The notes under the pieces: model-generated
Told to the model about the DNA's origin: nothing
What the model saw: only the letters and a program-made list of their open reading frames with translations
The model's database searches: none
Made by a program: the position numbers and the translations under genes
NCBI GenBank assembly: GCA_030698495.1
Contig: JAUYKA010000033.1
Location: 7,840 to 71,839, forward strand
Source of the DNA: a bacterium
Lineage (GTDB): Bacteria > Patescibacteriota > Andersenbacteria > UBA10190
DNA: 64,000 nucleotides
Direction: 5' to 3'
In this document: positions 2,831 to 49,756 of the stretch, one piece after another
How positions within the stretch are numbered: the stretch's first letter is position 1
How the letters are laid out: every line of letters starts with the position of its first letter

Positions 2831-2896
2831 TTTCAGTATACGTTCTTTTTAACTGCTGCTGGAGCCGTTATTGCGGGTGCTCTAGAAATAATTTTA

Positions 2897-5820: not shown

Positions 5821-5886
5821 GTTGCCAACAAGGCAAACGCTTGATTACGATGGTATTATATTTTGATTAATATCGTAGATATAAGG

Positions 5887-6624: not shown

Positions 6625-6694
6625 TTAACTTAACAATTAGCAACATGCTTCACTAACCCAATACAACGCTATACTACGACACGCATGTAAGTCT

Positions 6695-8563: not shown

Positions 8564-8692
8564 GTCAACCTTTATATTACGACATTCTAAATGCTACCAC
8601 ATTATATACAACACCAATAAAGGTCAACGTGACGCAGTTCCTACCCGCCATTGCACCCGCCTTCTAGGAGATCCTCTATTAAAATATTCAGA

Positions 8693-11400: not shown

Positions 11401-11407
11401 GTCTTAT

Positions 11408-14733: not shown

Positions 14734-14815
14734 AATAATTCATCGAAACTGTATTGACGTTGGACTTACACAAAAAACAGTTTGCACGTAAACATAGCCA
14801 ATGATTCAATATATG

Positions 14816-15913
14816 TCAATAATATGTTTCGCCAAAAGAGATGTTATCCCCCTCTATCGATATTAAGGCTGCCCTTTGCGGATCAATAATTGGCGTTGTC
14901 ATATACATGTCTCGACCATTATATCGACCACTAGTTATCCTAGCAGCCATACGACAACCACCCTCGCATAACATCAAGGCGTTGCACGTTCGACATTCTT
15001 CTGGAAGCATTTTTGGCGATGCCCAAGATTTCATCCTCAGCCAAGTACTCAAAAATTTATCTGGTAAAACGTTGCCAAAGACAACGTCAGAATGGACGCA
15101 TGGTCTCATCGTTCCCGCTGATGAAACAACACAAGACGATACTGCGGCTGAGCAAATTCTGTTTCCGAAGAAACGAACAAACTCTGCTTCTTCGCGCTCA
15201 CCAAAAAGACACCTAGCGACCGGTTCAAGAACATCAACTTTGAGGGACAACTCCTTGTCTATGCGCATCAACTCTCTTAAGCAACGCTTACACTCTACCC
15301 CCGAAAGACAAAGGGGTATATTCGCTCTACATGACGGTAACATGGGGCCTGCACAGAAAGTGCTAACCCCGAGACGCTTTAAGGCCAGAGCTGTATCAAA
15401 TATGAAGTCTAGATTCATTTTTGATACGACCATATTAACGGCAACAGAAAGGTTAACCGCCAATAGACTTTCTATGCCCTTGATAGTTCGGCCGTAATTA
15501 CCACCAGCCCCGGCAATAGTGTTGTGTATGTCCTCTGGACCAAGCACTGAAACCAAGACATGCTTTAAGCCTTGCTCCTTTAGCGCTCGCGCATCTTTGC
15601 ATTGAATTAGAGCCGCATTTGTGTTAAGTCCCGTTTCAATTCCATATGACGTTGCAAGAGCAATGAGCTTAAGCAAGATTTCTTTTCGAAGCATCGGTTC
15701 GCCACCCGTAAACGTTACTAAGCCCACTTTAGCATCTCGCAACTGATCAATGACCATGCTATAGTCATTCATCCCTAATTCGTCTTGGTCTTTTACGAGA
15801 CTATGCCTCCAATAGTTGTAGCAGTGTCTGCATTCTTGATTGCACTGCGAAGTCAATTCTATTTGTACATCTAATGGCGCTGAGAGCCTTTCCATTGCTT
15901 GTCCTCCAAACAA
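14816..15913 (-). CDS. Radical SAM/SPASM-domain maturase-like enzyme (365 aa), first gene of the operon.
   Basis: CNQECRHC radical-SAM motif. C-terminal CSAAVSSC...C and CRTCNALMLCEGGCRMAA SPASM clusters. Confidence 0.8.
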   Translation of the reverse strand: MFGGQAMERLSAPLDVQIELTSQCNQECRHCYNYWRHSLVKDQDELGMNDYSMVIDQLRDAKVGLVTFTGGEPMLRKEILLKLIALATSYGIETGLNTNAALIQCKDARALKEQGLKHVLVSVLGPEDIHNTIAGAGGNYGRTIKGIESLLAVNLSVAVNMVVSKMNLDFIFDTALALKRLGVSTFCAGPMLPSCRANIPLCLSGVECKRCLRELMRIDKELSLKVDVLEPVARCLFGEREEAEFVRFFGNRICSAAVSSCVVSSAGTMRPCVHSDVVFGNVLPDKFLSTWLRMKSWASPKMLPEECRTCNALMLCEGGCRMAARITSGRYNGRDMYMTTPIIDPQRAALISIEGDNISFGETYY

Positions 15914-16087
15914 ATAAACAAGTTTTTAAAAGAACAGCAAGTAAGTGTACAACTATTTTTTACTAATGCAATCAGTAGAACCAACAATATGTCAATTTGC
16001 ATTGGCATACATAGTCATTCTGTTTCCTACCTGCAAACCTAACGATGTGACTAGCCATGCCATCTTAATTTGGTTTGTTATAGATCG

Positions 16088-27106: not shown

Positions 27107-27215
27107 TTTCTGTTTCGCCGGATGCCGGCTCTTCTGACCGGAATGACATAATGAGTTTGGCTAAACGTTTGGCTTGTTATAGACTTTAATTGCATTTTTG
27201 TTTCTTTGACAATTT
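27107..27215 (+). repeat. Repeat element A, second copy, ending in TTGACA just upstream of the lectin gene.
   Basis: About 90% identical to 24312-24420. Confidence 0.75.
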
Positions 27216-27229
27216 GCGGAGGAAGAGCG

Positions 27230-30979: not shown

Positions 30980-32236
30980 TTATGAAGGGGAGGAGGCGTT
31001 TCCCCAGCCAATCATTTTCAAGAACGCTTCGATGTTGGCGTTGTATTGTTTGGTGAATTCTTTAGTGTCTTTGGCTCGCTTCTTTACATCAGCAGGACTG
31101 TCGTAATCGGGAATGAGCCAGGAAGAAACAGACGCTACGGCACGATTGTCTATGAGCGGCTGGCCGGTGAGGATTTTGCGGACTGCGGCTGATACAATGA
31201 CACCGTTAAGCAGGGCGGCGCCGCCCAATTGCGGCCAAGTGGGAATAGTTTTGCCTATTTCCAGCAGGGATTCTTGTAAACGCGGTTCGGTGACGTCATA
31301 GCCGATCAGTTTTTCGCCGATCATTTGGCCGATGAGCGGCAAAGGCAAGTTTTTATCAAGCACTTGTTCGGCGATATCCTCCCCCGCCCGGCCGTGGAAG
31401 TAGGGAATGTTATCGTCGAGGTCGTGGCGTTCGATATCCAGAATGCCGCTGTCGCCGTTATCGGCGGCCATGACGACAGGGATTTTTCTTTTTTTGGCTT
31501 CCTGACGAATACGAATTTTCATACCGAGCTGGTCGATTTCGTCGATGACAACATCGAGCCCGTCAAAAAAATCGTTGATATTGTCTTCGGTGAGGCCGTC
31601 GGGATAAAAAGTAATGTCGGCGTAAGGGTCGAGTTCATATATTTGGCGGGCGGCCATGTAGGTTTTAGGTTCGGTTAATTCGGATATACTGCCGCGGATG
31701 CGATTTAGGTTGGTTAGTTCTAATGTGTCCGGATCAGCTAATTTTAGATGTTTGCCGCCGCCGGTTAAGACAATGGATAGGGCAACGCTGTTGCCCACCG
31801 ACAGGCCGGCAATGCCGATGGTGCTGTGGTAATATTTGGTTTGCTCGTCGGCGGGAATGATGTTGCGGTTGCGTCCGGTTCTGACTTGCTGGTAGCCGTC
31901 GTCGTCTAAAATATGCAGTAAGATATGGCGCCAGGATAAGTAAACCCACTTGCCGGCTTGCCATGGTTCTTGCTGGCCGTAGTGTTCTTTGGCGTGTTGC
32001 TCAAATTGCTTGTCGCGCTCTGGCGGATTTACGTGCAGGGCTGGATTGTTTAAGACAAAAAGCTCTTTGAGTTGGGTAGCATAAGTATCAATGATTTTTG
32101 TGTGGGGTTTTTGGTCGAGCAGATCTTTGATTTTCTGCTGATCGGCTTCCTGTTTTAAATCAAAGAATACTGGTTTTGGTGCCACGACCGCAGTGGATTT
32201 AGTTGGCTGTAAACGATTAGACAGGTCGTCTAACAT
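30980..32236 (-). CDS. ThiF/MoeB/HesA-family E1-like protein with a roughly 120-aa N-terminal extension.
   Basis: Rossmann motif IGIAGLSVGNSVAL, and LADPDTLELTNLNRI. Confidence 0.6.
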   Translation of the reverse strand: MLDDLSNRLQPTKSTAVVAPKPVFFDLKQEADQQKIKDLLDQKPHTKIIDTYATQLKELFVLNNPALHVNPPERDKQFEQHAKEHYGQQEPWQAGKWVYLSWRHILLHILDDDGYQQVRTGRNRNIIPADEQTKYYHSTIGIAGLSVGNSVALSIVLTGGGKHLKLADPDTLELTNLNRIRGSISELTEPKTYMAARQIYELDPYADITFYPDGLTEDNINDFFDGLDVVIDEIDQLGMKIRIRQEAKKRKIPVVMAADNGDSGILDIERHDLDDNIPYFHGRAGEDIAEQVLDKNLPLPLIGQMIGEKLIGYDVTEPRLQESLLEIGKTIPTWPQLGGAALLNGVIVSAAVRKILTGQPLIDNRAVASVSSWLIPDYDSPADVKKRAKDTKEFTKQYNANIEAFLKMIGWGNASSPS

Positions 32237-32608
32237 AGTTTTTTTGAGGTGGATTATTAATTTAATGTATCAATTGATGGGGGTCAGATCAAATTGCCAT
32301 TGTTTCTCGGCTGCCGAGATTGCCACGCCCGTCAATATTTTGCTGAAGCAAAACATAGGCGGGTTCCAGCCGTCGCACAAGGCTATGGCCGGCACGGCGC
32401 AATGACGGCGACTTTCACGTCAGTGAGAAATTACATGTATTTGACGAAAATGGGTTATTGGTGCTATATATAGATTATATGGAACAACTATATATGCAGC
32501 CGAAGAGTTTGTTTATCACAGTCACTAATCGTGACGCGAATTTCGGTTGGTCTAACCAGGGCTGCTTAAGTGTAAATATAGTGTAAAAATATCTAATTAC
32601 TTTTACTT

Positions 32609-36273: not shown

Positions 36274-37218
36274 TTACGCTTTGGTAAATTGTATCGGTTC
36301 ACCCCAGAATTTGGCGGCTTGAGCTGAAACTTTTTGCGGGTCACCGGAAGTAACAAAACGGCGTTGACCTGTTTTGTCCAGGCTTGTGGCTATGGCTGAA
36401 TGACGGTTAAGATAGTCAGCCAGTTTGGCGGCGACTATTTTGGGTTGTTCATATAGAGTGACGCTTTCGGGTAAGAGAGAGTGAATCTGGTCGGCAACTA
36501 GTTCGTAATGAGTACAGCCGAGGAGTAAAGATATTTTTTCTGATGTAGAGATTGCCGCGCCCGACTTTTTAGGAAAAAGTTGGCCTCGCAATGACGTTAT
36601 GCAGTTCTGAAGTATCTTGTTGATGTTTTGTTGAGAACTGTTGTCTTCAATAGCTTTAACTAACCCCGGGCAGGCTTGTTGGTAAACTTTGATATTGGAA
36701 TTACGCTTGTGGATTTCGTGCTCATACGCTTTTGAGGCAACGGTTTGCGGAGTGGCAAGTACACCTAGCACCAGCGCAGAAGTCTGCGCTGGTGAATTTT
36801 CAATTTTCAATTTCCAATTTTCAGAGTTTCGCCACGAGACTCCAGTGATCTGTTCGATTGTTGGCACAATTATGCCTAAAACTTTTTTGTCGGGATGAAG
36901 GCGTGGCAGCCATTCCTGCTGTAAGCGACGAAGGGCCACAGCTGAAGCAGTGTTGCAGGCTAAAATTACTAGCTGGGCGCCTTGTGAGAACAGATATTCT
37001 ACGCCCGTAATAGTGTGCTGGTATATTTCTTCCGGTTGACGGGAGCCATAAGGAGCGCGAGCGTTGTCGCCAAAGTAAATGTATGAATATTGAGGCAGTT
37101 GATGGCTGATTTCTTTGAAGATTGTCAGGCCGCCATAGCCGGAGTCAAAGAGGCCGATCCAGCCGGCGGCATCGCTGTTGGGTTTTTTGTCAGAGTCTGA
37201 CATTATTTGCGCAAGCAA
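36274..37218 (-). CDS. murI: Glutamate racemase carrying an in-frame insertion encoded by a heptamer tandem repeat.
   Basis: GLFDSGYGGLT, ILACNTAS and GCTHY motifs. Insert WRNSENWKLKIENSPAQ corresponds to (gaaaatt)n at 36794-36824. Confidence 0.75.
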   Translation of the reverse strand: MLAQIMSDSDKKPNSDAAGWIGLFDSGYGGLTIFKEISHQLPQYSYIYFGDNARAPYGSRQPEEIYQHTITGVEYLFSQGAQLVILACNTASAVALRRLQQEWLPRLHPDKKVLGIIVPTIEQITGVSWRNSENWKLKIENSPAQTSALVLGVLATPQTVASKAYEHEIHKRNSNIKVYQQACPGLVKAIEDNSSQQNINKILQNCITSLRGQLFPKKSGAAISTSEKISLLLGCTHYELVADQIHSLLPESVTLYEQPKIVAAKLADYLNRHSAIATSLDKTGQRRFVTSGDPQKVSAQAAKFWGEPIQFTKA

Positions 37219-38174
37219 TCCCGGGCAGTGCGACGCGGCGTGGCTTTGAGGTTGTGGCGCAGGCTGTGTCCAATACGTAAAATAGCGTGGGGCAGTAAAT
37301 TGGTGCCCAGGATCTGTTGGGTTTGGTGGCGGTATTTATCCCCCGCTTCGATGGCGGCGGCCATAGGGGCGGCAGCCAGACCGGCTTTGGTGGCTTCCAG
37401 CCAGAGGGTTTCCATGTCTATACCAACGCGCAGCCAGTCTTGAGGTGAGTCGGCCGAAGTGGCAAAGACGGCAATAGTAGAGGCGCTGGCTATTTGTTTG
37501 GCAGTGTTGGTTTGTTCCTGTTTGTGAATAGGCAGAATTAAGACCGCCCAGGGTAAGACGGGAGTAAGCGGCGCGGGAATAAGCATGGCGTAACCGGGCA
37601 TGCCGTCGGGCTGTCTGGTCCAGTTGCTGCGCACCCAATGAGAGAGTTCACGGCGAAAATCTTTGCGGGCCAGGGTGGCGTATGAACCGGCTCCGGTTAT
37701 GGCAGCCAGTTTATCAATTTGCTCGTGTGTTTCTACGGGAATGACTGCGAGAGACTGAAGGGACGGTAAATGATTTTTTTCGTCAGCGGTTAGCGGTTCT
37801 TTATTGTATTCGGAACGATCGGTTCGTCGTTGATTTATGACCGGGAAGAGTGAAGCAAGGTGAGAATCGGTGCCGGAATTGTTGAGGCGCAGACGGGCTA
37901 TTAGCATATTTTCTCCTTCACCATCAGGGAAAAAATCTATATCGGTATGGTGGTTATGGTGGGCGGCGGCAATTAGACAGTTGGCGATAAGACAACCAAG
38001 ACTGGTGTAAAGCTGGCGATGGGTGGGGTCTGATACCATTAAATGCCGGCGGTGATCAATGTATATATCGATAGTGTTGTCGCTGATATTAAAGAGCCAG
38101 GGTTGGGTGTTGTGCGCGGAGGGAGCCAAGACTGCCGCCGGGAGAATTTGTTCGATTATTTGATGGCTAGTCAT
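37203..38174 (-). CDS. Nitroreductase-family protein.
   Basis: APSAHNTQPW motif. Confidence 0.6.
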   Translation of the reverse strand: MTSHQIIEQILPAAVLAPSAHNTQPWLFNISDNTIDIYIDHRRHLMVSDPTHRQLYTSLGCLIANCLIAAAHHNHHTDIDFFPDGEGENMLIARLRLNNSGTDSHLASLFPVINQRRTDRSEYNKEPLTADEKNHLPSLQSLAVIPVETHEQIDKLAAITGAGSYATLARKDFRRELSHWVRSNWTRQPDGMPGYAMLIPAPLTPVLPWAVLILPIHKQEQTNTAKQIASASTIAVFATSADSPQDWLRVGIDMETLWLEATKAGLAAAPMAAAIEAGDKYRHQTQQILGTNLLPHAILRIGHSLRHNLKATPRRTARDCLRK

Positions 38175-38202
38175 GTTTTTGTATTTAGTATCTTGTATTT
38201 CG

Positions 38203-38634
38203 TTACGAGGCGTTGACGATGAGGTTAAATAGGCTGGGGTGGGAAGGCTGATACTGACCGGTCATGTATTCCTGCTTGTTAATCCAGACATATTCTTCGA
38301 TGCGTTCGTTGGTAGGATTGGCCGTAAGATCGATATTCATATGCAAAGGATGACAACGGAAAAGGGTGGAGATTATTTGATTGCTGTCTTTTACCCGGTA
38401 AAAATACCACATGCCTAAAGGCGCTTGAATTTCGACATCAAGATTGGTTTCTTCTTTTACTTCCCGATGCAGAGCGTCATAAGGCGATTCGCTGTGCTGG
38501 ACCTTGCCGCCGGGAACATCCCAGAAGATGAGCTCGCCTTCGTCCATGTTAATGATCTGCTTGATAAGTAAAAATTTGTCGTCGTCAAAAATGAGGGCGT
38601 GGACGGCAGGCAGAATCTTTTTTTCTTCAGCCAT
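38203..38634 (-). CDS. NUDIX hydrolase.
   Basis: GGKVQHSESPYDALHREVKEETNL. Confidence 0.8.
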   Translation of the reverse strand: MAEEKKILPAVHALIFDDDKFLLIKQIINMDEGELIFWDVPGGKVQHSESPYDALHREVKEETNLDVEIQAPLGMWYFYRVKDSNQIISTLFRCHPLHMNIDLTANPTNERIEEYVWINKQEYMTGQYQPSHPSLFNLIVNAS

Positions 38635-38677
38635 AAGTTTAAAAGTGTTTAGTATTTAGTATCTTGTATTTAGTATG

Positions 38678-39682
38678 TTACTGGCCACTTTGTTTGTACA
38701 TTTTTTCGCTTTCTGCCTTCAAAGGACGCCACCAGGATTCGTTGGCTCGATACCAATCTACAGTTTTTTGCAGCCACTGGGCAAATGTATGTTGCGGTTC
38801 CCAGTCAAGGTTTTTATTTATTTTACGCCAATCAACGGCGTAGCGGCGGTCGTGACCGGGACGGTCTTTAACATATTCAATTTTATCTTCGCCGAGATTC
38901 ATGTATTCAAGCAGTATTTGAGCCACGGCAAGGTTGTTGACATCATCGGTCATGCCGCCGATTAGATATGTCTCCCCTATTTTCCCTTTTTGCAGTACGG
39001 CATCAATGGCGCGACAGTGGTCGGTGACATAAAGCCAGTCGCGGACGTATTTGCCATCACCGTAGATTTTAACCTTATCGCCGTCGATAAGGTTGGTGAT
39101 CATGCGGGGAATAAACTTTTCCGGATGTTGATATGGGCCGAAATTGTTGGAACAGTTGGTGATGGTAATCGGCAGATCGAAAGTTGTGTGATAAGCGCGG
39201 ACAAGATGGTCTGATCCGGCTTTGGAAGCGGAATAGGGGCTGTGGGGCTCATATAAAGTTTTTTCGGTAAATTTTTCTTCGGAATCAAGTGGCAGGGCGC
39301 CAAATACTTCATCCGTAGAAACGTGGTGAAACCGCTTATTGTGTTTTCTGGCAGCTTCAAGCAAAACAAAGGTGCCTTTAACATTAGTCTCAACAAAAGC
39401 TTCGGGACCCAGAATTGAACGGTCAACATGAGATTCGGCGGCAAAATGAACGATTATGTCGGCTGCCTCCACCAGTTCGTCCACTATTTCCGGATTACAA
39501 ATGTCGCCTTTGACGAAGGTGTAGTTGGAGTTGGCGGCTATTTCTTTTAAATTATCAAGATTACCGGCATAGGTTAGGGCATCCAAGTTGGTGATTTGAT
39601 CGTCGGGATGCTCTTTGAACCAGTAATGAATGAAGTTACTGCCGATGAATCCCGCCCCGCCGGTGACTAGTAGTTTGCTCAT
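38678..39682 (-). CDS. rfbB: dTDP-glucose 4,6-dehydratase.
   Basis: GGAGFIGS, YSASKAGSDHLVRAY and ITNCSNNFGPYQHPEKFIP motifs. Confidence 0.85.
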   Translation of the reverse strand: MSKLLVTGGAGFIGSNFIHYWFKEHPDDQITNLDALTYAGNLDNLKEIAANSNYTFVKGDICNPEIVDELVEAADIIVHFAAESHVDRSILGPEAFVETNVKGTFVLLEAARKHNKRFHHVSTDEVFGALPLDSEEKFTEKTLYEPHSPYSASKAGSDHLVRAYHTTFDLPITITNCSNNFGPYQHPEKFIPRMITNLIDGDKVKIYGDGKYVRDWLYVTDHCRAIDAVLQKGKIGETYLIGGMTDDVNNLAVAQILLEYMNLGEDKIEYVKDRPGHDRRYAVDWRKINKNLDWEPQHTFAQWLQKTVDWYRANESWWRPLKAESEKMYKQSGQ

Positions 39683-39763
39683 GAGGTAAGTATTTAGTAT
39701 TTATCTATTAGGGGCAAGTATGGCGCGGTGGTATTTCCAATTGTATAAGGGTACAGTGTATTT

Positions 39764-40174
39764 ATGACTAAAGTGATAAAATTATCTGCGGATGCGGATG
39801 ACAAAACCGCTTTGCGCGGGGCAGGAGTAAGTTTGATGGTTATGTTTGGTTCCCACGTGACGGGCAACCGACATCCAGGCAGTGATATTGATATTGGCGT
39901 GCTGTTTAAGGATTTGAAGCAAAAAGAAGCGGATCCGGTGGATGTTTACGGCACTTTATCTGATGTCTTGGCGCGGATTTTCCCGGGTAAGCGACTGGAT
40001 ATAGTGTATTTACATGAGGCGCCTTTGAGCTTGCGGTTTCGAGCAGCAATGGAAGGAGAGCTTTTATACGCCGAGTCGCCAACTTTGGCGGCTGATTTTA
40101 AAGAATACGCCATGAAAATGTATTTTGATTTTAAGCCTGTGGAGGAAGAATTTAAGCAAGTAATATTCGGATAA
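39764..40174 (+). CDS. MntA-like minimal nucleotidyltransferase (type VII TA antitoxin).
   Basis: GS...GSDIDIGV motif. Followed by a HEPN/DUF86 gene. Confidence 0.65.
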   Translation: MTKVIKLSADADDKTALRGAGVSLMVMFGSHVTGNRHPGSDIDIGVLFKDLKQKEADPVDVYGTLSDVLARIFPGKRLDIVYLHEAPLSLRFRAAMEGELLYAESPTLAADFKEYAMKMYFDFKPVEEEFKQVIFG

Positions 40175-40203
40175 TTGATAATCGGTAACAATGTTTCAAC
40201 TAT

Positions 40204-40659
40204 ATGATGGTAGTGAACGCTCCTCTTGATGAAGAGAAACTAAAGAATCTCCTGGCGGAAGTACGAGAGAATGTGGAATCTTTGCGGCCGTTTGCTGATA
40301 TGACGGAAGCAGATTTTCGAAAGGAAGGAAATAATTACGCTATTACCGAGCATCATTTCCGCCGGGCTTTGGAAGGAGTTTTAACCATAGGAACACACTT
40401 ACTGTCGCGTTTGCCTGCTAAAACAAACGACTATCAAGAGGTGATTGTGTCGCTGGGGAAGCACGGCGTTGTGCCGGAAGAATTCGCGGCACAAAATCGC
40501 AAATTGGCCGGCTATCGTAACCGCTTGGTGCATTTATATTGGGAAATATCCGATAAAGAATTGCATGATGTTATTAAGCGGCACTTGGGCGACTTAGAGC
40601 AGTTTTGTGCGTATTTTGTGAAATATATTGGCGAGAAGAGGAATCTTGGAGAAAAATAG
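40204..40659 (+). CDS. HepT-like HEPN (DUF86) toxin.
   Basis: Rx4HxY motif YRNRLVHLYW. Confidence 0.65.
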   Translation: MMVVNAPLDEEKLKNLLAEVRENVESLRPFADMTEADFRKEGNNYAITEHHFRRALEGVLTIGTHLLSRLPAKTNDYQEVIVSLGKHGVVPEEFAAQNRKLAGYRNRLVHLYWEISDKELHDVIKRHLGDLEQFCAYFVKYIGEKRNLGEK

Positions 40660-40668
40660 ATAGGTAAG

Positions 40669-41079
40669 CTATGAAGTCAGGAGCAAATCTTTGAGTGGTT
40701 TTATGGCTTTGGTAAATTTTATGTTGTCCAGATCCGGCGCGGAGAAAAAATCGTAGCCAACACATTCATCGGAATCTATAAAGTTGAAGCTTGGTAGTTC
40801 AATTTTAAAACAGACATAAACTAAATGTGTATCGGTTTTTTCCCAATAGGCGGTCCAGGCGAAGCGCGGGTTTTTGTCGATAACATTGCAATCGACTCCC
40901 ATTTCTTCCTGACATTCCCTTTTTAGCGCTTCGGAAAATGTTTCGCCGTGCTCCAGCCTGCCTCCGGGTAGGTCCCATTTTCCGTTCGGTTCTTCAAGAA
41001 GCATTACTTGGCCTTTTTTATTAAAAACAAGGCCCTTTACGTCAACATGAAATTGCTTGCTATTTTGTTTTGTTGTCAT
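40669..41079 (-). CDS. NUDIX hydrolase.
   Basis: LPGGRLEHGETFSEALKRECQEEMGV. ATGA overlap with metG. Confidence 0.8.
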   Translation of the reverse strand: MTTKQNSKQFHVDVKGLVFNKKGQVMLLEEPNGKWDLPGGRLEHGETFSEALKRECQEEMGVDCNVIDKNPRFAWTAYWEKTDTHLVYVCFKIELPSFNFIDSDECVGYDFFSAPDLDNIKFTKAIKPLKDLLLTS

Positions 41080-42521
41080 GATTTGCGGGCGAATAGCGGC
41101 TCTTGGGGTTTTTTGATAGGACGGGCTTCCAGGAGCTTGGTTAGTTTGGCGTGAGTTTCAGGGAGAAAGGGGGCGATTTGATTATTAACTGCAACCAATA
41201 TAGAGAAAATTCCTGCAAGCGTTCCTTCTATTTCTTTTGTTTTATTCTGTTTTGCCAATTCCCAAGGCTTGTTGTCTTCAATCCATTTGTCTGCAACTCC
41301 AAGTGCCTGCCATATGTTTTCTAATGCAGAACTAAAATCAAGATTTTCAGTTAATATCCCGGCTTCGTAGAGTAATTTCTGAACTAATGTTGAAGATGCT
41401 ACTGGCAGATCCGGATCAAGCTCTGGTGTAAACCTCTCAATCATATTAAGAGTGCGGGAAACAAGGTTGCCGAGGCCGTTAGCCAAATCGGCGTTGTAGC
41501 GTTCCTTTAAGCGTTCGGGGGAGAAATCACCGTCTTTGCCGAAGGGAATGTCGCGCAAGAGAAAGTAGCGAATGGCGTCGCTGCCGTATTCTTGGGACAA
41601 CTCAACCGGATCAATGGCGTTGCCCAAGGATTTACTGATTTTTTGGCCGTCGATGGTAAAAAAGCCATGGGCGAAAACCTTTTTAGGTAATTTTTCACCG
41701 ATAGCCTCCAGCAGCGCCGGCCAGATAACGCAGTGAAATTTAATAATGTCTTTGCCGACAATGTGAACGTCGGCCGGCCACCATTTGTTAAATTTGGCTT
41801 CATCTTTACCGTAGCCAATGGCGGAGCAGTAGTTAAAAAGCTCATCCAGCCAGACATAGATGGTTTGGCTGGCATCCCAAGGCAAGGGCAGAGCGAATTT
41901 GGCGGTGCGCCGGGAGATGGCGATGTCTTCTAGACCTTGTTCTATAAAAGACAGGACTTCGTTTTTGCGCTCAACCGGTTCTATTTGTAGTTGGCCGCTG
42001 GTGATTTTTTCTTGGAGAAAATCACCGTATTCGGAAAGCTTAAAAAACCAGTTTTTCTCTTTTGTTTTTTCCGGCGGTTGGCCGTGATCGGGGCAGTTGC
42101 CATGTTCGTCCAGCTCCGATTCTTTAATAAACGCTTCGTGACCAACACAGTAAAGACCGGCATATTCGGCTTCGTATAGCTGGCCGGATTCTTTTAGTTT
42201 TTTAAAAAAATTGGTGACAGCGGCGGCGTGGCGCGACTCGGTGGTGCGAATAAAGTCATCGTATTGAATGCCCAGGGTCTCCCAGGCGGTCTTGAAATAT
42301 TCAGAGTTGGTATCGACAAAAGATTGGGGAGCTTGTCCGGTGGCTTCAGCGCTGTTGGCAATTTTGGTGCCATGTTCGGCAACGCCGGTAAGAAAGAAGG
42401 TGTCGTCCCCTTTTATTTTATGCCAGCGCGCCAGAACATCGGCGGCGATAGTAGGATAGGCCGAGCCGATGTGCGGTTTGGCGTTGACGTAGTATATGGG
42501 GGTGGTGACGTAATACTTCAC
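41076..42521 (-). CDS. metG: Methionyl-tRNA synthetase (short form), GTG start.
   Basis: HIGH region PHIGSAY, KMSKS as KISKSLGN. Confidence 0.85.
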   Translation of the reverse strand: MKYYVTTPIYYVNAKPHIGSAYPTIAADVLARWHKIKGDDTFFLTGVAEHGTKIANSAEATGQAPQSFVDTNSEYFKTAWETLGIQYDDFIRTTESRHAAAVTNFFKKLKESGQLYEAEYAGLYCVGHEAFIKESELDEHGNCPDHGQPPEKTKEKNWFFKLSEYGDFLQEKITSGQLQIEPVERKNEVLSFIEQGLEDIAISRRTAKFALPLPWDASQTIYVWLDELFNYCSAIGYGKDEAKFNKWWPADVHIVGKDIIKFHCVIWPALLEAIGEKLPKKVFAHGFFTIDGQKISKSLGNAIDPVELSQEYGSDAIRYFLLRDIPFGKDGDFSPERLKERYNADLANGLGNLVSRTLNMIERFTPELDPDLPVASSTLVQKLLYEAGILTENLDFSSALENIWQALGVADKWIEDNKPWELAKQNKTKEIEGTLAGIFSILVAVNNQIAPFLPETHAKLTKLLEARPIKKPQEPLFARKS

Positions 42522-42633
42522 AAATTTTTAATTAATAATTTTTAATTTTTAATCAATTTATAAATGACTCAATTATTAATTACTCTACATTTTTTCTGTT
42601 TCGGAGGTTACTAAGACTATAGCAGGATTTTCT

Positions 42634-42708
42634 TTAGTAGTAAGTAGTCAGTAGTAAGGGGACGGTGACGAGCAGTTCTTACTGCTAGCTACTTACTGCT
42701 AGCTACTA
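42634..42708 (+). repeat. Imperfect long palindrome containing a TAGTAGTAAGTAGTCAGTAGTAAGGGGACG-type motif (family with 43954-43990).
   Basis: ttagtagtaagtagtcagtagtaagggg...cttactgctagctacttactgctagctacta. Confidence 0.55.
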
Positions 42709-43231
42709 AATCTTTCAAATCGTAGATGTATACGGCGCCGGATTTGGGAGTACGCACGATTTGTTCCGGGGCAACATCTTTAAAGGGGAAAACATAAGAG
42801 AGAAGGTATTTGGCGCGGGGAAGGTTTTGTTTGGCCAGGTAGGTTTTTAAGCGCGGCATATTGTCCGGCATGAGGAAAGCGAAGACTACTGTGGTTTCGG
42901 GGGGAAGTTTTTGCTTGTAGAAATTGCGGAGGCGGATTTTAATTGTTTCATTGTTTTTCACTACGCGCAGCCAAGAGACAAACCACATAATAGGAGAAAG
43001 TTCATAACCGACAGCTTTGGCGCCGACAGAGTTGGCTGATAATAAGACTTTGCCGTCGCCGGCGCCCAGGTCAATTACAAAGTCGTCTTGTCCGAGGCCG
43101 ATTAGTTTGAATGCTTTATTAATGGCCGGCTGGCGCGTGGGAGCGTAGGGCGCGCCGATAAAACCAGCATAAGCGGTGGGAATAAGCAGGGCGACGCCGA
43201 AGAGAATTAAAAGGAGAAGAAACAAGGGCAT
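42689..43231 (-). CDS. Class I SAM-dependent methyltransferase with an N-terminal hydrophobic segment.
   Basis: Motif I VIDLGAGDGKVL. Confidence 0.6.
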   Translation of the reverse strand: MPLFLLLLILFGVALLIPTAYAGFIGAPYAPTRQPAINKAFKLIGLGQDDFVIDLGAGDGKVLLSANSVGAKAVGYELSPIMWFVSWLRVVKNNETIKIRLRNFYKQKLPPETTVVFAFLMPDNMPRLKTYLAKQNLPRAKYLLSYVFPFKDVAPEQIVRTPKSGAVYIYDLKDLVASSK

Positions 43232-43325
43232 GTTTTAGTCATTAGGGCATTAGTTATTAGGCATTAGTACAATGTAGCTTTCGCCTGCGGGCGAAAGCTA
43301 CTATTTACTAAGACTAATAGTTTAA

Positions 43326-43872
43326 CTACGTCGCCTTAACTTTTAGTTTGCGCGTGACAGCGGCGTTGGCCTTGGGTATGCGAATAGTTAAGACGCCATT
43401 TTTAATTTTGGCTTCGGCGCGGTCCGCGTCTATTTCCACCGGTAAAATAATCGAGCGGGAGAAAGTTCCCCAGTAACATTCCTGATAGAAGTAATCTTCC
43501 GGATCAATGTCATATTGCTGGCGACGCTCACCGCGAATAGTGACCATGTCGTTGGTGATAGAAACATCAAGGTCGTCGGGAGAAACACCGGCGATAGTGC
43601 TTTGCACGACAATGTTTTGGTCGTCTTGAAACACGTCAACAGTCAACTGGCCTTCCTGCTCTTCTTCATTACCGGCGTTTTCGTCGGAGTATGTTTCTTC
43701 CGGCTCGGCTTCAGTTTCTTCCATTGTTTCCGCCAGCTCCTCATCAGGTTCCGGTTGAACGGCAACGGTTTGGTCGCCGTTGTCTTCATATTGCACTTCT
43801 TCCTGACCGGAGCTACCTAATAAACGGGCGCCGGTAATGCGTTCAAAAAAGCTGCGTGGTTCTTGTGGCATA
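43326..43872 (-). CDS. Small heat-shock protein (Hsp20/alpha-crystallin).
   Basis: Alpha-crystallin domain ...GVLTIRIPK. AAGGAGG RBS upstream of the ATG at 43872. Confidence 0.75.
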
Positions 43873-43953
43873 TGTTTTATCCTCCTTTGAATTAGTGTAG
43901 CAGATATTACTGGAAATAGTATAGCAATATTTTTTACATGTGCACATACCGAA

Positions 43954-43990
43954 TTAGTAGTAGGTAGTAGGCAGCAAGGGACGAGACGCA
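43954..43990 (+). repeat. Second copy of the TAGTAGTAGGTAGTAGGCAGCAAGGGACGAGACG motif, upstream of hsp20.
   Basis: Aligns with 42634-42672. Confidence 0.5.
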
Positions 43991-44016
43991 TTACAGACCG
44001 ATAATGTATTTTTTTG

Positions 44017-46578
44017 CTATTGCAGAAGTGCTTTGCTGACAATCATCTCTTTCAGCTTGGCTTGACTGTCCGCAATGAGGCGCTTTTTGGCAGTAACAAT
44101 TTCCTTCGGCGCCTTGCCTTTCATTTGCGTCAGGGATTCAGACTGGCGTTTTACAAATTGTTCCAGTTTAGTTGTTTCTTGGAGCAGTTTTTGGCGCGCT
44201 TGACGGATAACGTCGTCAGTTAGTTCGTCAGAGGCGATGGCGATGGTTTCTCCACCGGCAAGAGGCAGTTTGGTCATGTTTTCCCGCGCCTTTTTAAGCA
44301 GGGACACTTTTGCCAGTGATGATAGAATCTCGGGCATGATGGCGTCAGAAACATAGAGATCAATGGTAACACTGGGTGAGATACCAAACAGCGCTCGGGC
44401 GCTGCGCACGGCCGCGACTATATTTTGAAAACGGGTTATTTTTTTGTCCGCCTTTTGGTCCGGTTTGGTTTTGGCTTCAGGCCAAGGAGAAGTAATAAGC
44501 ATGTCTTTGTTGCCAAACTGCTGCCAGAGAACTTCGGTGATGTGCGGCACGAAGGGATGGAGCAGAGAAAGAATTTTGGTGAAAACAGACCGGGCGTTGG
44601 CCGTTGATCCTTTTATTTTAAGAACTTCCACGTACCAGTCGGCGTAATCTTTCCAGATAAAGTCGTAAATCAGGCGGGCGGCTTCGCCGAAGCGATACTG
44701 ATCGATAAGTTCTCCGGTCTGTTTGATAACGGCGTCACAGCGACGGTTAATCCATTGGTCAAAGATGGTGGCTTCGTCGCGAGAAGGTAAGTTTTGTAAA
44801 AAACGCGCCAGATTCCAGATTTTGTTGGCAAAGTTGCGCGCGGAGACGATAGCGTTCTCATCGAACTTAATGGCCTGGTTGTCGTAACTCATCTGATACA
44901 TGAGACCGAAACGGGTGGCATCAGAGCCGTATTTGTTAATTAATTTCAGAGGGTCAACGCCGGTGCCTAAGCTCTTGCTCATGCGCCGTCCGTTTTTGTC
45001 CAGAACGGTGGGGTGGATGAATACATCCTTAAAAGGAATACGCTGTTCGATTTGGGGTCGTTGATATTCCTCCCCTTTTAACAGCTCCAGGCCGGAGAAA
45101 ATCATGCGCGCCACCCACAGATATAAAATGTCGCGGGCGGTAACCAAAACAGAAGTAGGGTAGAATCGATGCAAATCGTCAGCGGCGTCCGGCCAACCTA
45201 GTGTAGCAAATGGCCACAGGGCGGCGGAAAACCAGGTATCAAGAACATCAGGATCTTGTTCATAGTCCCCCGCCGGCTTATCTTCCGCCACAATAAAGTT
45301 ACCTTCTTCATGATCGGTGCCGTGGGTGTCTTTTTTCCACCAAACCGGCAAACGATGTCCCAGCCAGATTTGACGATTAATATTCCAGTCACGGATATTA
45401 TGCATCCAATCCAGAAAATGTTTTTTCCAGCGCGGTCCGTAAAAGCGGATGAGGTCGTCTTCGACGACGGCGATCGTTTCGTCTTTTAGTTTCTGCATAT
45501 TCAGAAACCACTGACGGGATATTTGCGGTTCGATTAAGCCTTTACCGCGGTCGTTGCGAGCGACATTGTGGACGTAATTGGCGTTTACATGCACCAAAAG
45601 ACCTTTTTTCGCCAGTTTGGCGACAATTTTAGGCCGAGCTTCTTCGATGTCCATGCCGGCAAATTCAGCGGCAATAGGCATTAGTTTGCCGTTGAAGTCG
45701 ATAATTTGTTCCCGGTCCAGGTTATGCCGTTCGGCAATATCAAAATCAGTCGCATCGTGCCAGGGCGTGATAGTCATAACGCCGGTACCGAAGGAGGGGT
45801 CGATTGATTCATCTTTTATAACGGTGGCGTTGACGGGTCCGTTTATCCATTCGCAAGTGAATGTATCGCCGTGTTTGTATTGAGCATAGCGTTTATCGTC
45901 CGGGTGCATGACGACGTATTTGTCGCCGAATTTTGTTTCCGGACGAGCAGTGCTTATTTGGAAATGACCATATTGAAAGGTGTAATAAGGAGCGGTTTCT
46001 TCGTGCCAATCTATTTCTATGTCAGAAACGGTGGTTTGGGATTTGGGATCCCAATTAACCAGGCGCCGGCCGCGATAAATTAATCCTTTGGCGTAATAAT
46101 GGATGAAAGCTTTATTAACGGCTTGAACATATTTTGTGTCCATAGTGAAGCGCTCGCGGCTCCAATCGCAGGAGGCACCGAGACGTTTCATTTGATTAAT
46201 AATGGCTTTGCCGGTTTTGTCATACCACTCATCGGCGCGTTTCATAAATTCTTCCCGGCCAATGTCGTAGCGGGTTTTGCCTTCTTGGTGCAGTTGCTCT
46301 TCCAGCACTTTGTTGGTGGCAATAGCGGCATGGTCCGTACCGGGTAACCAAAGCGCGGGGCGGCCCAGCATGCGGTTATAGCGCATAAGAATGTCCATAA
46401 TGGTGTCCTGCAGGGCGTGCCCCATATGGAGCGTGCCGGTGATGTTGGGCGGCGGAAGCATGATTACATAGGGATTATTCCCGTTTTTTGGCGGCGTGAA
46501 GGCGCCGGATTCCTCCCATTTCCGGTATACTTCTGCTTCATACTCGGCGGGATTGTATTGTTTGGGTAGAGATAGCAT
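44017..46578 (-). CDS. valS: Valyl-tRNA synthetase.
   Basis: HIGH (PPNITGTLHMGHAL), KMSKS (RMSKSLGTG), 853 aa. Confidence 0.9.
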   Translation of the reverse strand: MLSLPKQYNPAEYEAEVYRKWEESGAFTPPKNGNNPYVIMLPPPNITGTLHMGHALQDTIMDILMRYNRMLGRPALWLPGTDHAAIATNKVLEEQLHQEGKTRYDIGREEFMKRADEWYDKTGKAIINQMKRLGASCDWSRERFTMDTKYVQAVNKAFIHYYAKGLIYRGRRLVNWDPKSQTTVSDIEIDWHEETAPYYTFQYGHFQISTARPETKFGDKYVVMHPDDKRYAQYKHGDTFTCEWINGPVNATVIKDESIDPSFGTGVMTITPWHDATDFDIAERHNLDREQIIDFNGKLMPIAAEFAGMDIEEARPKIVAKLAKKGLLVHVNANYVHNVARNDRGKGLIEPQISRQWFLNMQKLKDETIAVVEDDLIRFYGPRWKKHFLDWMHNIRDWNINRQIWLGHRLPVWWKKDTHGTDHEEGNFIVAEDKPAGDYEQDPDVLDTWFSAALWPFATLGWPDAADDLHRFYPTSVLVTARDILYLWVARMIFSGLELLKGEEYQRPQIEQRIPFKDVFIHPTVLDKNGRRMSKSLGTGVDPLKLINKYGSDATRFGLMYQMSYDNQAIKFDENAIVSARNFANKIWNLARFLQNLPSRDEATIFDQWINRRCDAVIKQTGELIDQYRFGEAARLIYDFIWKDYADWYVEVLKIKGSTANARSVFTKILSLLHPFVPHITEVLWQQFGNKDMLITSPWPEAKTKPDQKADKKITRFQNIVAAVRSARALFGISPSVTIDLYVSDAIMPEILSSLAKVSLLKKARENMTKLPLAGGETIAIASDELTDDVIRQARQKLLQETTKLEQFVKRQSESLTQMKGKAPKEIVTAKKRLIADSQAKLKEMIVSKALLQ

Positions 46579-46624
46579 ATATAATAACTTTGTTTATATT
46601 GGCATAAATTTGCGGGGATATAAA

Positions 46625-46768
46625 GGGCTGTAAGCAATTTTCAATTCTCAATTTTCAATTTCCATAGAATACTCAATTATTCAATGATCAAATGCACGAA
46701 ATAATGTGTGTTTGGTGCTTTTTAATATTGTTTATTGAAAATTGAATGGAAATTGGTAATTGGAAATT
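46625..46768 (+). repeat. Inverted pair of caattttcaattctcaattttcaatttcc heptamer-repeat blocks upstream of valS.
   Basis: 46625-46653, and its reverse complement at 46748-46768. The same heptamer occurs inside murI. Confidence 0.6.
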
Positions 46769-46902
46769 ATAATTTAACTAAATAGTTACTATGATTCCCT
46801 GCGGATATTCGTGCCTACTAACATAATATCTGGCTAACAATGCATATCCGACAACGTTTCTCGAGAAAATCAATATGGCGCTAGGGGGTAGGATGCGGTA
46901 GA

Positions 46903-47352
46903 GTGATAAAAGTTATGTCTTACGTGCTTACTGTCGGCTCGCTTCACTTTTTGCCCGGTGAGGCTTTGCGCGTACAAGAAGAATGCTCCTGTGAGGAGGC
47001 ACGACAAGGGTGTTTGCCTAGTTTTGTTTTTAGCCTGGAAGGACAAATAAGGTTTCGGACAGCTCTGCGGCACTTGGCTGTTTGTGAGAAAAGCCAGTGC
47101 CGGAAGCTGCGGCGTTATGTATTGGGCGGTATGCGGGACAAGTTGAGTTGGTTAATGGACGAGGAGTGTTTATTGGGGTGTGTGTTAGTTCAGCCGTCTT
47201 TGTACGGCGCCAAGCGGGTTATTCTGCAAAATAAGGATTTTGTTTCCGTCGCTCATCATTTAGCCAAGTGTCCCAAGGAAAGCTGCGCGCAGCTGCGCCG
47301 GGCACTGCTTTTGACAGTCAGAGACGAAGTGCGGGTGACGACGATAGAGTAA
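46903..47352 (+). CDS. Cys-rich hypothetical protein with an internal duplication.
   Basis: Two repeats of HLAxCxKxxCxxLRR. The 3' end overlaps the tsaD 3' end. Confidence 0.35.
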   Translation: MIKVMSYVLTVGSLHFLPGEALRVQEECSCEEARQGCLPSFVFSLEGQIRFRTALRHLAVCEKSQCRKLRRYVLGGMRDKLSWLMDEECLLGCVLVQPSLYGAKRVILQNKDFVSVAHHLAKCPKESCAQLRRALLLTVRDEVRVTTIE

Positions 47353-48556
47353 AATCTTCAATGCTTATACGAGCGGTTGCGTCTATTGCACGCCAAGTGG
47401 CGGTGCGTTTTTTGGTATAGGCATAACAAGCAACTTGGCCGATCATAATGGCATTGTCGCCGCATAGTTCTGTCGGGGCAATATGGAGGGGTGTTTGGTG
47501 TTCATCCGCCATACTTTGCATCTGACAACGCAAGATTTTATTGGCAGCCACTCCGCCGGCTAAAAGAAGCGTGCGGGGTTGGAATTGGTCAATAGCCTGT
47601 TTTGTTTTACCAATGAGTACATCAATAACTGTTTGCTGAAAACCGGCGGCGATGTCAGTTTTTACCGCTTGGGATAAGGACTCTTTTTTCTCCAGATCGC
47701 GAACTTTGTAGAGCACTTCGGTTTTAAGCCCGGAAAAACTGAAATCCAGATCACCAGAGTTGAGCATGGGGCGGGTGAATTTAAAGATGTTCGGATCGCC
47801 TGTTTTGGCCAGTTCGCTTATAGCCGGACCGCCCGGATAAGGCAGCCCGAGCAAACGCGCTACCTTGTCAAAAGCTTCTCCCGCAGCGTCGTCTCTCGTT
47901 GAACCCAAAACTTGGTATTGCAGGTGGTCTTTAACTAAAACCAATAAGGTGTGCCCCCCGGAAACGATGAGCGCAAGAGCGGGAAAGGGTTTGAAATTTG
48001 GGTTTTGGGTTTTGTTTGGGATTTGGGATTTGGGATTTGGGATTTTCGAGGCATGCGAGAGCAATGCCGAGTAGATGTGTCCTTCAATATGATGAACGGG
48101 AACAAGCAGCTTGCCCCACGCGTAGGCTAGTGTACGGGCGGCGTTAACACCAATAACGAGGGCGGGCATGAGCCCGGGGCCGACGGTGACGGCGATGGCG
48201 TCTATGCCAATTTTTGACCTTTGCCTGCCCCGCGCCGTGCCGGCCATAGCTCGGAGGGAGCGACGGCTGGTAGCCTTCCTCGGACCCTGGGCTCGCAAGT
48301 TCAGGGTGGCGAAGTGGGGACATTTGACCTTTGACTTACGAATAACATCAAAAATCATCGGGGAGATAATAGAAGCATGTTCTCTGGCGGCTACTTCGGG
48401 CACTACACCGCCGGTAAGGGTATGAATATCAACTTGCGAGGACACGGCGGAGGCCAGCACTTCCGGGGGTTTACCGGCCTGTTGTTGCACGACGGCAACG
48501 CCCGTTTCGTCGCAGGATGTTTCGATGGCTAAAATAGTGATTGGTTCTTTTGGCAT
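47318..48556 (-). CDS. tsaD: tRNA N6-adenosine threonylcarbamoyltransferase TsaD (Kae1/YgjD family) with two in-frame insertions.
   Basis: ILAIETSCDETGVAVV, HIEGH, LIVSGGHT and GGVAANKILR motifs. 412 aa against about 340 typical. Confidence 0.8.
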   Translation of the reverse strand: MPKEPITILAIETSCDETGVAVVQQQAGKPPEVLASAVSSQVDIHTLTGGVVPEVAAREHASIISPMIFDVIRKSKVKCPHFATLNLRAQGPRKATSRRSLRAMAGTARGRQRSKIGIDAIAVTVGPGLMPALVIGVNAARTLAYAWGKLLVPVHHIEGHIYSALLSHASKIPNPKSQIPNKTQNPNFKPFPALALIVSGGHTLLVLVKDHLQYQVLGSTRDDAAGEAFDKVARLLGLPYPGGPAISELAKTGDPNIFKFTRPMLNSGDLDFSFSGLKTEVLYKVRDLEKKESLSQAVKTDIAAGFQQTVIDVLIGKTKQAIDQFQPRTLLLAGGVAANKILRCQMQSMADEHQTPLHIAPTELCGDNAIMIGQVACYAYTKKRTATWRAIDATARISIEDFTLSSSPALRL

Positions 48557-48700
48557 ACCAAGAGCTTGTCATATTGCAACGGTTTTGTCATGATTTGTTT
48601 TCATTATGTTGCTTTAGGTTGGAATTTTATGTATAAATGATGCGCAGCAGCGCATACCATTATTTTGAGTTTTGCGTTTTGCATTTTACATTTAATTTAT

Positions 48701-48772
48701 GGCTCCATCGTCTAACGGCTAGGACGGTGCCCTTTCAAGGCGCAAATAGGGGTTCGATTCCCCTTGGAGCTA
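48701..48772 (+). tRNA. tRNA-Glu (anticodon TTC).
   Basis: Manual fold: anticodon loop CTTTCAA, T-arm GGGGT-TCGATTC-CCCCT, 3-bp D-stem, G1-U72 wobble. Confidence 0.65.
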
Positions 48773-48832
48773 CTAATCAAAACTTTATAATACTTGCATA
48801 ACTTTATAAAGTTTGGTAAAATAAGCTTATCT

Positions 48833-49756
48833 ATGAACTACGTAGATAAGTTGGTAATATTGCAGAAAGTAACAGAGAAGACCCAGACCGAACTGGCGGA
48901 TTTTTTAGGTGTATCATTTCCCACGCTTAACAGCTGGTTGAACGGGAAAAGCATACCGCGCAATAAAGCGCAGGAAAGAATTGACTTGCTATATCAGGAA
49001 TATACCGGCGTAGATCGTGTTGATGAATCGTCGCTATCAGCAAAAAAGCAAAAAATTGCAGCTTTACAAAAAAAGTATCCGGATCCGCTTAACACAATAA
49101 TCAGACGCAAAGACCTATACGACACTTTCGTCCTGGAACTTACCTATCACACCAACAGCATTGAAGGCAGTACTCTTAACGAGCCGGAAGTAAAAGCAGT
49201 CATTTTCGATAATGCCGTTATTCCCGATAAAACCGTAATAGAACATCAGGAAGCAAAAAATCATCAGGCTGCCTTAGCTAGCCTGTTCAAACAGTTAAAT
49301 GACAATCGCGAAACCAGGATTTCTGAAGATGAAATCAAAAAAATGCACGCCATCTTGATGAACGGTATTTACCCCAATGCCGGACAATACCGCACGCATC
49401 CTGTCAGAATAGTCAGTTCCCGAGTCGTCACGGCTAATTATATAAAAATTGAGGAGCTGATGAGAAAGCACGTAACAGAGTTAAAGAAAAAACCCGCCGA
49501 TGTTTTTACTCACCTGGTCCAAACTCACGCGCACTTTGAACAAATCCATCCGTTTTCCGACGGCAATGGCCGCGTCGGCCGCTTGCTCCTGCATGCTCTT
49601 GCTGCGCGCTACAGCCTGCCTCCCGTCTTAATTAAACGCGAGAAGAAACAGGCATACTATACTTATCTTGAACGGGCTCAGATTAAAGATGAGTATATGT
49701 TTCTAGAATCATTCATCTGCGACGCAATTCTTGAGGCGTACAAACTGCTGAAGTAA
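48833..49756 (+). CDS. Fic-family protein with an N-terminal HTH.
   Basis: Fic motif HPFSDGNGRVGR. XRE-like HTH QTELADFLGVSFPTLNSWL. Confidence 0.8.
   Translation: MNYVDKLVILQKVTEKTQTELADFLGVSFPTLNSWLNGKSIPRNKAQERIDLLYQEYTGVDRVDESSLSAKKQKIAALQKKYPDPLNTIIRRKDLYDTFVLELTYHTNSIEGSTLNEPEVKAVIFDNAVIPDKTVIEHQEAKNHQAALASLFKQLNDNRETRISEDEIKKMHAILMNGIYPNAGQYRTHPVRIVSSRVVTANYIKIEELMRKHVTELKKKPADVFTHLVQTHAHFEQIHPFSDGNGRVGRLLLHALAARYSLPPVLIKREKKQAYYTYLERAQIKDEYMFLESFICDAILEAYKLLK

Follow-up and report, generated by a model that had tools for sequence, protein, structure and literature searches.

The stretch of DNA analyzed here, 64,000 nucleotides of contig JAUYKA010000033.1 (the whole of which is called the window), includes the genes murI, encoding glutamate racemase, and tsaD, both of which have repetitive DNA within their reading frames. 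In murI this is a tandem array of a 7-nt unit, and tsaD contains a second such array together with a 99-nt GC-rich segment that is bracketed by direct repeats (Table 1). An earlier note on the same DNA had pointed out these features and an inverted pair of arrays upstream of valS; all of them exist, the arrays being confirmed with Tandem Repeats Finder (TRF) at a threshold of at least three copies of the 7-nt unit, and the peptides quoted in the note are exact. Neither the reading frame nor the conserved sequence on either side is disrupted by the GC-rich segment, the TsaD array or the MurI array, which agrees with the in-frame translation of repeat DNA proposed in the note, and AlphaFold models that are otherwise confident put all three in low-confidence peripheral segments (a helix in the case of MurI).

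Table 1. Genes, tandem arrays and repeat elements treated in the text, with positions in the window.
Feature	Position	Strand	Setting and description	Source or support
second hairpin module copy	32365-32402	minus		cmsearch model R1, 53.7 bits
murI (glutamate racemase)	36274-37203	minus	homologues 45-58% identical	AlphaFold mean pLDDT 91.8
AATTTTC x4.1 (GAAAATT in gene sense)	36795-36823		inside murI	TRF
AGTATTT x4.7	38644-38676		fills the intergenic spacer from the epimerase stop codon to the NUDIX start codon	TRF
AATTTTT x4.4	42523-42553		intergenic, abuts the MetRS start codon on its upstream side	TRF
AGTAGTA x3.3	42636-42658		intergenic	TRF
TTAGTCA x4.7	43235-43268		intergenic, abuts the start of ORF 42689-43231 (upstream side)	TRF
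CAATTTT x3.9	46635-46661		upstream of valS, left arm of inverted pair	TRF
TGGAAAT x3.1	46747-46768		upstream of valS, right arm of inverted pair	TRF
tsaD (412 aa)	47318-48556	minus		AlphaFold mean pLDDT 86.9
ATTTGGG x7.6 ((AAATCCC)n in gene sense)	47996-48045		inside tsaD, loop after the HxxxH motif	TRF
direct repeat copy 1, TTTGACCTTTG	48213-48223		heptamer-like, (GTCAAAG)x2 in gene sense	
GC-rich segment	48224-48322	plus	99 nt, open in 4/6 frames, translated in tsaD as CPHFATLNLRAQGPRKATSRRSLRAMAGTARGRQ...	
hairpin module (GCCGTGCCGGCCATAGC - variable stem-loop - GCGACGGCTGG)	48230-48271	plus, antisense to tsaD		cmsearch model R1, 54.5 bits
direct repeat copy 2, TTTGACCTTTG	48323-48333			
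TTTTGCG x3.6	48663-48687		intergenic, tsaD start to tRNA-Glu	TRF

A GC-rich segment inside tsaD

With a GC content of 70.7%, the 99-nt segment departs from the rest of tsaD (50%); the earlier note had recognized both the segment and its 11-bp repeats, placing its limits slightly differently from Table 1 and its GC content at 68%. The flanking direct repeats (tttgacctttg) are exact over 11 nt, retain 13/14 identity when extended, and coincide with the indel boundaries set by the orthologue alignment. By chance, 11-mer direct repeats at spacings of 60-200 are expected about three times per 64 kb; the seven other 11-mer direct repeats found in the window are chance-like, and none of them brackets a GC-rich segment.

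Comparison with 114 TsaD homologues collected for this site showed that 85 have a short loop of one common length here and that the loop of the window, at +36 aa, is the longest. The net insert amounts to 36 aa against the modal loop length, or 36-37 depending on the ancestral loop assumed, and the residues concerned (80-119) have values of 52-69 on the predicted local distance difference test (pLDDT) of AlphaFold. The absence of the segment from most orthologues, the direct repeats at its edges and the recurrence of its core elsewhere bear out its description as an insertion. The repeats are spaced at 110 nt, a length not divisible by three that shifts the frame; an indel of +1 or -2, or a 7-nt slip, would therefore have restored it.

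A hairpin module that recurs at other loci

Part of the segment is a hairpin module of which the window holds a second, intergenic copy, some 130 nt 5' of a gene of the ThiF family (30980-32236, minus strand); blastn gives exact matches of 19 nt and 11 nt to the insert there, at 32366-32400. Searching with the pattern GCCGTGCCGGCCATAGC-N(3-12)-GCGACGGC, an exact core of 25 bases, retrieved 19 metagenome contigs. The apical stem varies among the module copies yet keeps its pairing, with both variable pairs changed on both sides, and its covariation score was reached by none of 500 shuffles. The hairpin also shows a strand-specific G-U pair, and the pairing of the lower stem, in columns that were fixed by the search pattern, is ambiguous.

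Module copies occur singly in AT-rich spacers or as two to three tandem units with a 36-nt period, beside assorted housekeeping genes. The units of the tandem sets (L097 1112-1217, L099 4118-4187, L089 1980-2049 and L096 6576-6645) are identical to one another, and on all four contigs they adjoin another GC-rich hairpin (cctctccttcggagaggg). Comparison with solved structures places the module inside in-frame inserts of two further proteins, a GluRS (contig L090, about 28 aa) and a TlyA methyltransferase (contig L100, about 40 aa), and the module is antisense to the gene in all three in-ORF (open reading frame) cases, TsaD included. GluRS and TlyA read it in another frame (TPAVA..LWPARQD) than TsaD does (TSRRSLRAMAGTA), and there is accordingly no conserved module peptide. 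The GluRS and TlyA elements (L090 1328-1426 and L100 1359-1472) have in common an outer inverted repeat (TCCTTCGATAC / GTATCGAGGGA), and in both the module is surrounded as well by a second hairpin, of the 'CGTAGC...GCGNAGG' type; this make-up suggests nested or modular elements.

Rfam gave no match for the insert or for the second module copy, even at E<=10; at the gathering threshold two tRNAs were its only matches in the window, and 14 related loci gave none. The hairpin core had no matches in viral contigs, and a literature search with the core sequence string yielded no matching paper. On a further contig (L102, 3-584) a fragment of a DDE transposase (DDE_Tnp_1_3) lies about 450 nt from two module copies, and this is the only transposase seen near any copy.

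Other TsaD homologues carry GC-rich modules of their own. At the insert site of the window's TsaD, P0020 and P0034 have an 85-nt GC-rich hairpin with compensatory changes, and the P0034 insert was assembled independently from two samples. These inserts were considered as copies of the window's element and rejected; they are taken as a different module because they share with it only a 16-nt motif, in the opposite orientation. Further short GC-rich modules, at that loop or elsewhere in the protein, were found in P0007, P0075, P0084, P0048 and P0008. The peptides of these other modules include SPDKGRLGGV, KSPDRGRPGG, LDKGRLGG and SSQAPRNDS/APRNDS, and ASPDKGRLGGV is identical at two different TsaD sites in two organisms (P0007 and P0075). 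Similar inserts are present in other MurI homologues.

Heptamer arrays in spacers and in two protein loops

The 64 kb contain 10 period-7 arrays of three or more copies, a number that 30 second-order Markov simulations (0-1 arrays) did not approach, and at 0.16 per kb the arrays are denser than in unrelated loci (1.35 Mb), where the figure is 0.04 per kb; other periods are not enriched in the window. Eight of the 10 lie in short intergenic spacers, mostly just 5' of start codons, and the remaining two in murI and tsaD. The arrays before MetRS, a 180-aa ORF and the NUDIX gene stop a few bases short of the start codon. The two arrays upstream of valS belong to an inverted repeat (I1) with 42-nt arms at 46636-46677 and 46734-46775 that are 74% complementary; the pair is thus present as the earlier note described it, with its first coordinate about 10 nt off.

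The valS gene itself has, at 46035-46049, an exact two-copy run of AAATCCC in gene sense, which is the unit of the tsaD array and which here encodes the conserved NWDPKSQTT without any insertion. Besides its two heptamer arrays, the spacer upstream of MetRS has two repeats of longer period (42549-42707), one with a 15-nt unit (x2.4) and one, which is perfect, with the 14-nt unit CTTACTGCTAGCTA (x2.1). A weak period-7 array, CTTGGTG x4.7 with 70% matches (29035-29068), is situated near the 3' end of a gene (27206-29086) for a 626-aa protein with two C-type lectin domains, which is unusual for a Patescibacteria-like genome.

Heptameric repeats are over-represented in some bacteria, with an intergenic bias and occasional inverted pairs, and polymerase slippage is their proposed cause (PMC4692102, citing Mrazek 2007). 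For the window, we infer that the heptamer arrays are a property of this genome and that they were most likely made and re-homogenized by replication slippage.

The array in murI encodes about 10 aa (SENWKLKIEN) of a variable MurI loop, modelled by AlphaFold as a low-confidence helix (residues 121-143, pLDDT 58-77). Relatives have at this position a loop of the form 'GxxW + 10-25 aa' whose length varies across the clade, and that of a Saccharibacteria relative (L001) is about 5 aa shorter than the window's. From this comparison the loop is judged native to its clade, the array covering only about 10 of its residues. The array is translated, as the earlier note had it; what the note counted as 17 extra residues is mostly this clade-native loop, longer than that of L001 by the 5 aa or so just given.

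In tsaD the array encodes SKIPNPKSQIPNKTQNPNFK, and perfect units (four AAATCCC) stand beside decayed ones in a loop (residues 166-192) with pLDDT values of 45-57. In the 120 homologues collected for the segment that separates HxxxH from SGGHT, the shortest loop has 11 residues and the longest 53; at least 16 of the 120 contain peptides there (NFQFPIS and KSQIPNP, for example) that are exactly what (AATTTCC)n or (AAATCCC)n would encode. On L081, a contig syntenic with the window and encoding a TsaD of 57% identity, the identical loop position is occupied by an (AAATCCC)n array in decayed form (6110-6172). Because distant relatives, L081 among them, share the heptamer-periodic loop, the TsaD array is not a recent insertion in this genome, and it is read as ancient or as continually regenerated in place. 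The idea that heptamer arrays have recently been generating insertions in the two genes must consequently be given up: the TsaD loop is common to distant relatives and the MurI loop is native.

Source genome and neighboring genes

In a search of 185,579 species-representative genomes, the best matches to ValS were a Candidatus Saccharibacteria metagenome-assembled genome (MAG; L001) and a Patescibacteria MAG (L002), at identities of no more than 61%. The nearest relatives of TsaD and MurI likewise come from Saccharibacteria/Patescibacteria MAGs, and these similarities point to an uncultivated, Saccharibacteria-like (Patescibacteria) host genome. The TsaD of the window is identical to the NCBI MAG protein MDP3997812.1, after which the closest TsaD among 5.8 billion protein clusters is 59% identical. 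Comparison with L081 of ValS, HSP20, MetRS, the epimerase, a nitroreductase-like protein and two small ORFs revealed repeat-associated inserts in none of them; an apparent 73-aa extension of HSP20 relative to L081 was rejected as an ORF-start artefact.

Several neighboring features are recorded for completeness. The interval between the epimerase and MetRS contains a toxin-antitoxin pair (39764-40659) composed of a nucleotidyltransferase (MNT/Polbeta) and a HepT-like RNase, which is absent from the syntenic L081. Close to tsaD, and directly after tRNA-Glu (48701-48773), lies a gene (48794-49756) for a protein with helix-turn-helix and Fic/DOC domains. GC skew changes sign at about 16 kb, being negative before that point and positive over the remainder of the window, with its cumulative minimum near 14-16 kb, and GC content falls to 35-37% at 8-14 kb, a stretch that encodes radical-SAM proteins and a pyridoxal phosphate-dependent decarboxylase. 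The skew switch and the low-GC stretch (1-16000) could mark a replication origin or terminus, or a foreign island.

Origin of the repeat features

Taken together, these data are best explained by two unrelated repeat processes, heptamer slippage arrays on the one hand and a small hairpin-bearing element in tsaD on the other, a reading to which we assign a probability of roughly 0.6. The earlier note had proposed a single repeat family that can insert or expand within ORFs. This does not hold: contigs with the hairpin core are not rich in heptamers, and heptamer arrays occur without the core, so that the link between the two was rejected and the phenomena are treated as independent.

For the arrays, replication slippage would make and re-homogenize 7-nt units, which are abundant in intergenic spacers, and two of the arrays would sit in native, hypervariable and disordered loops of MurI and TsaD. 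There the unit may be read in three frames, so that the peptide, KSQIPNP for example, is hydrophilic and repeats every seven residues, and only copy-number changes of three units, or compensated changes, would survive. The 99-nt segment, for its part, is best read from its sequence as a small non-autonomous element resembling a miniature inverted-repeat transposable element (MITE), a repetitive extragenic palindromic (REP) sequence or a Rickettsia palindromic element (RPE). It would have entered the TsaD loop between helix alpha-1 and the next strand, probably duplicating 11 nt of a heptamer-like target, and the frame would then have been restored by a +1 or -2 indel or by a 7-nt slippage step in the (GTCAAAG)x2 target. 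The ribosome would read straight through the element, yielding an arginine-rich, disordered loop of 36-37 residues. Selection would keep only those insertions that fall in permissive loops and are open and in frame, and it is therefore such survivors that would be seen in essential genes.

Several observations weigh against this explanation. The closest TsaD relative, at 59% identity, is too distant for an empty-site comparison at strain level, and the 110-nt spacing demands an extra compensating indel that is itself unobserved. The whole element folds no better than its shuffles when taken as the mRNA strand (z = -0.23) or when folded as DNA (z = -0.02), and only modestly better as RNA of the plus strand (z = -1.73); a 'three-way junction' structure of the whole element was rejected for the first two values, on account of which structure is claimed for the 40-nt hairpin alone. 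The ends of the element (CCTGCCCCGCGCC / GGCGAAGTGGGGACA) pair imperfectly in the predicted fold and are known from a single copy, and as terminal inverted repeats they appear weak. No second full-length copy of the 99 nt was found in the window by blastn or cmsearch, and no transposase or RAYT (REP-associated tyrosine transposase) gene turned up there in Pfam scans, which covered 40 of its 58 ORFs of 120 aa or more. Conservation of the core is partly circular because the search pattern fixed its invariant columns. A six-frame search with the concatenated insert peptides gave no scoring match to further in-ORF copies, and a profile of the GluRS and TlyA insert peptides likewise gave no scoring match and one candidate only, indicating that such peptides are not common in predicted proteins.

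We advance more tentatively, as a possibility that falls well short of an even chance, that the hairpin of about 40 nt (TCCT-GCCGTGCCGGCCATAGC-variable stem-GCGACGGCTGGA) is the recognition core of an undescribed family of modular mini-elements, widely dispersed among uncultivated bacteria. Such elements would be mobilized in trans by an enzyme, would nest with other small GC-rich hairpins, and would time and again colonize permissive loops of the essential enzymes TsaD, GluRS, TlyA and MurI. The family would then be a cross-phylum counterpart of the RPEs and a general generator of protein segments in reduced genomes.

Among the rival explanations, the one that fares best, although we consider it unlikely, holds that all three segments are ordinary lineage-specific loops which evolved in place as low-complexity coding sequence. 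The loop of MurI and the second loop of TsaD are homologous to the loops of relatives, and the two-copy AAATCCC of valS, which encodes the conserved DPKSQ without an insertion, makes heptamer periodicity compatible with conserved coding. Evolution at the protein level nevertheless leaves unexplained the four perfect AAATCCC units and a 10-fold, mostly non-coding period-7 excess, and it does not account for a GC-rich segment that is absent in 85/114 homologues, has exact 11-mer flanks, and possesses a 19+11-nt core present at unrelated loci.

Rather less probable is that the GC-rich insert was recruited for a function, either as an arginine-rich arm for binding tRNA or a partner in a reduced t6A machinery, or as a regulatory hairpin. 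The insert peptide is strongly basic; the core is conserved across contigs, with its strand-specific G-U pair and modestly better folding in one orientation; and one module copy stands in the 5' region of the ThiF-family gene. Recruitment is hard to reconcile, however, with the different frames of the module in TsaD and in GluRS/TlyA and the consequent lack of a conserved peptide, or with an insert that is predicted to be disordered, is missing from most homologues and has no Rfam match.

That the segments are artefacts of assembly or binning, through a chimeric join or through collapsed or expanded low-complexity reads, appears improbable. The contig is a metagenome assembly seen once, and assemblies commonly go wrong at low-complexity arrays and at patches of discordant GC content; yet frame and conserved flanks remain intact through all three segments, independent assemblies repeat the pattern (the array of L081 and the GC-rich inserts of P0020 and P0034, the latter in two samples), and the hairpin core is present in 19 unrelated contigs. 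Finally, the suggestion that the element is untranslated, being a small intron, a translational bypass like the mitochondrial 'byp' or a precise excision between the repeats, could draw on its GC-rich, hairpin-capable nature and on the matching 11-mers as possible take-off and landing sites, but it is very hard to credit because the conserved IDAIAVTVGPG block downstream stays in frame on read-through but not once one repeat plus the element (110 nt) is dropped, and because 99 nt without any ribozyme or intron family match is far below the size of a group I or II intron.

Relation to known repeat systems

Returning to the two-process explanation, both kinds of feature have described counterparts. 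The RPEs are about 100-150 nt long and occur in frame in unrelated genes (Ogata et al. 2000, 2002, reviewed in PMC10969869). According to that review they are, like the element of the window, hairpin-capable, found both between genes and in frame within housekeeping genes, and translated into surface segments compatible with the fold; the insertions in TsaD (window), GluRS (L090) and TlyA (L100) reproduce this in-frame occurrence in unrelated housekeeping ORFs. Each RPE family, by contrast, has one conserved peptide, whereas the present module is read in at least two frames. The host is moreover Patescibacteria-like and only the 40-nt core recurs; a relationship in sequence is not expected.

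The element also resembles MITE/REP-like repeats (REP and its mosaic assemblies, BIME; SMAG; Correia; ERIC) in being small, in encoding nothing itself, and in the conserved hairpin core, which is single at some loci and repeated every 36 nt at others; its exact 11-nt flanking repeat is a possible target-site duplication of the MITE kind. It differs from MITEs in the apparent weakness of its terminal inverted repeats and in that the core, rather than the whole element, recurs in the 64-kb window, and from MITEs and REPs alike in that the window scans showed no cognate insertion sequence or RAYT gene. REPs are extragenic by definition, and one of the module copies in the window is intragenic. 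Of the features of REP/RAYT systems, a hairpin with a conserved stem and tandem clusters are present, and a GTAG head was not identified. The GTGCCGGCC core may be similar to Stenotrophomonas/Xanthomonas REPs. Mitochondrial GC clusters, double-hairpin elements and 'byp' elements are likewise GC-rich hairpins that land in protein-coding genes of a genome richer in AT, some of them being bypassed in translation; the present host is non-organellar, and read-through is the only frame-consistent reading here.

The heptamer arrays correspond to the heptanucleotide simple sequence repeats (SSRs) or short tandemly repeated repetitive (STRR) sequences reported for Nostoc (GGGGA(T/C)T) and Xanthomonas (GGGAATC), which according to PMC4692102 are similarly over-represented, mostly intergenic and sometimes in inverted pairs. 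The G-tract unit GGGATTT resembles those published heptamers, and a slippage origin is proposed for both. Unlike them, the arrays described here belong to another phylum, have mostly A/T-rich units, include two that are translated in essential genes, and include one that has been kept at a single protein loop across deep divergence. A cyanobacterial origin from STRR or small dispersed repeats (SDR) was rejected, the closest relatives of ValS, TsaD and MurI being Saccharibacteria/Patescibacteria MAGs.

The features therefore fall within kinds already known, the arrays being heptanucleotide SSRs and the tsaD insert an RPE/MITE-like in-frame element, and they imply no new principle; the hairpin core of the in-frame element has not been catalogued before. 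The features do exceed chance, and both heptamer over-representation (PMC4692102) and in-frame palindromic elements (PMC10969869) had already been described.

Inserts of this type inflate or distort orthologue alignments and seed spurious 'hypothetical' peptides in metagenome annotation, and they mark permissive loops in TsaD and MurI. Read-through translation, if it takes place, would produce peptides such as ATSRRSLRAMAGTAR or KSQIPNK, and the 25-base pattern, together with the covariance model, provides a searchable handle on the mobilizing enzyme. If the explanation preferred here is true, selfish or slippage-derived DNA would regularly add new surface segments to essential enzymes in uncultivated bacteria with reduced genomes, an origin of such segments that has so far been documented mainly in Rickettsia.

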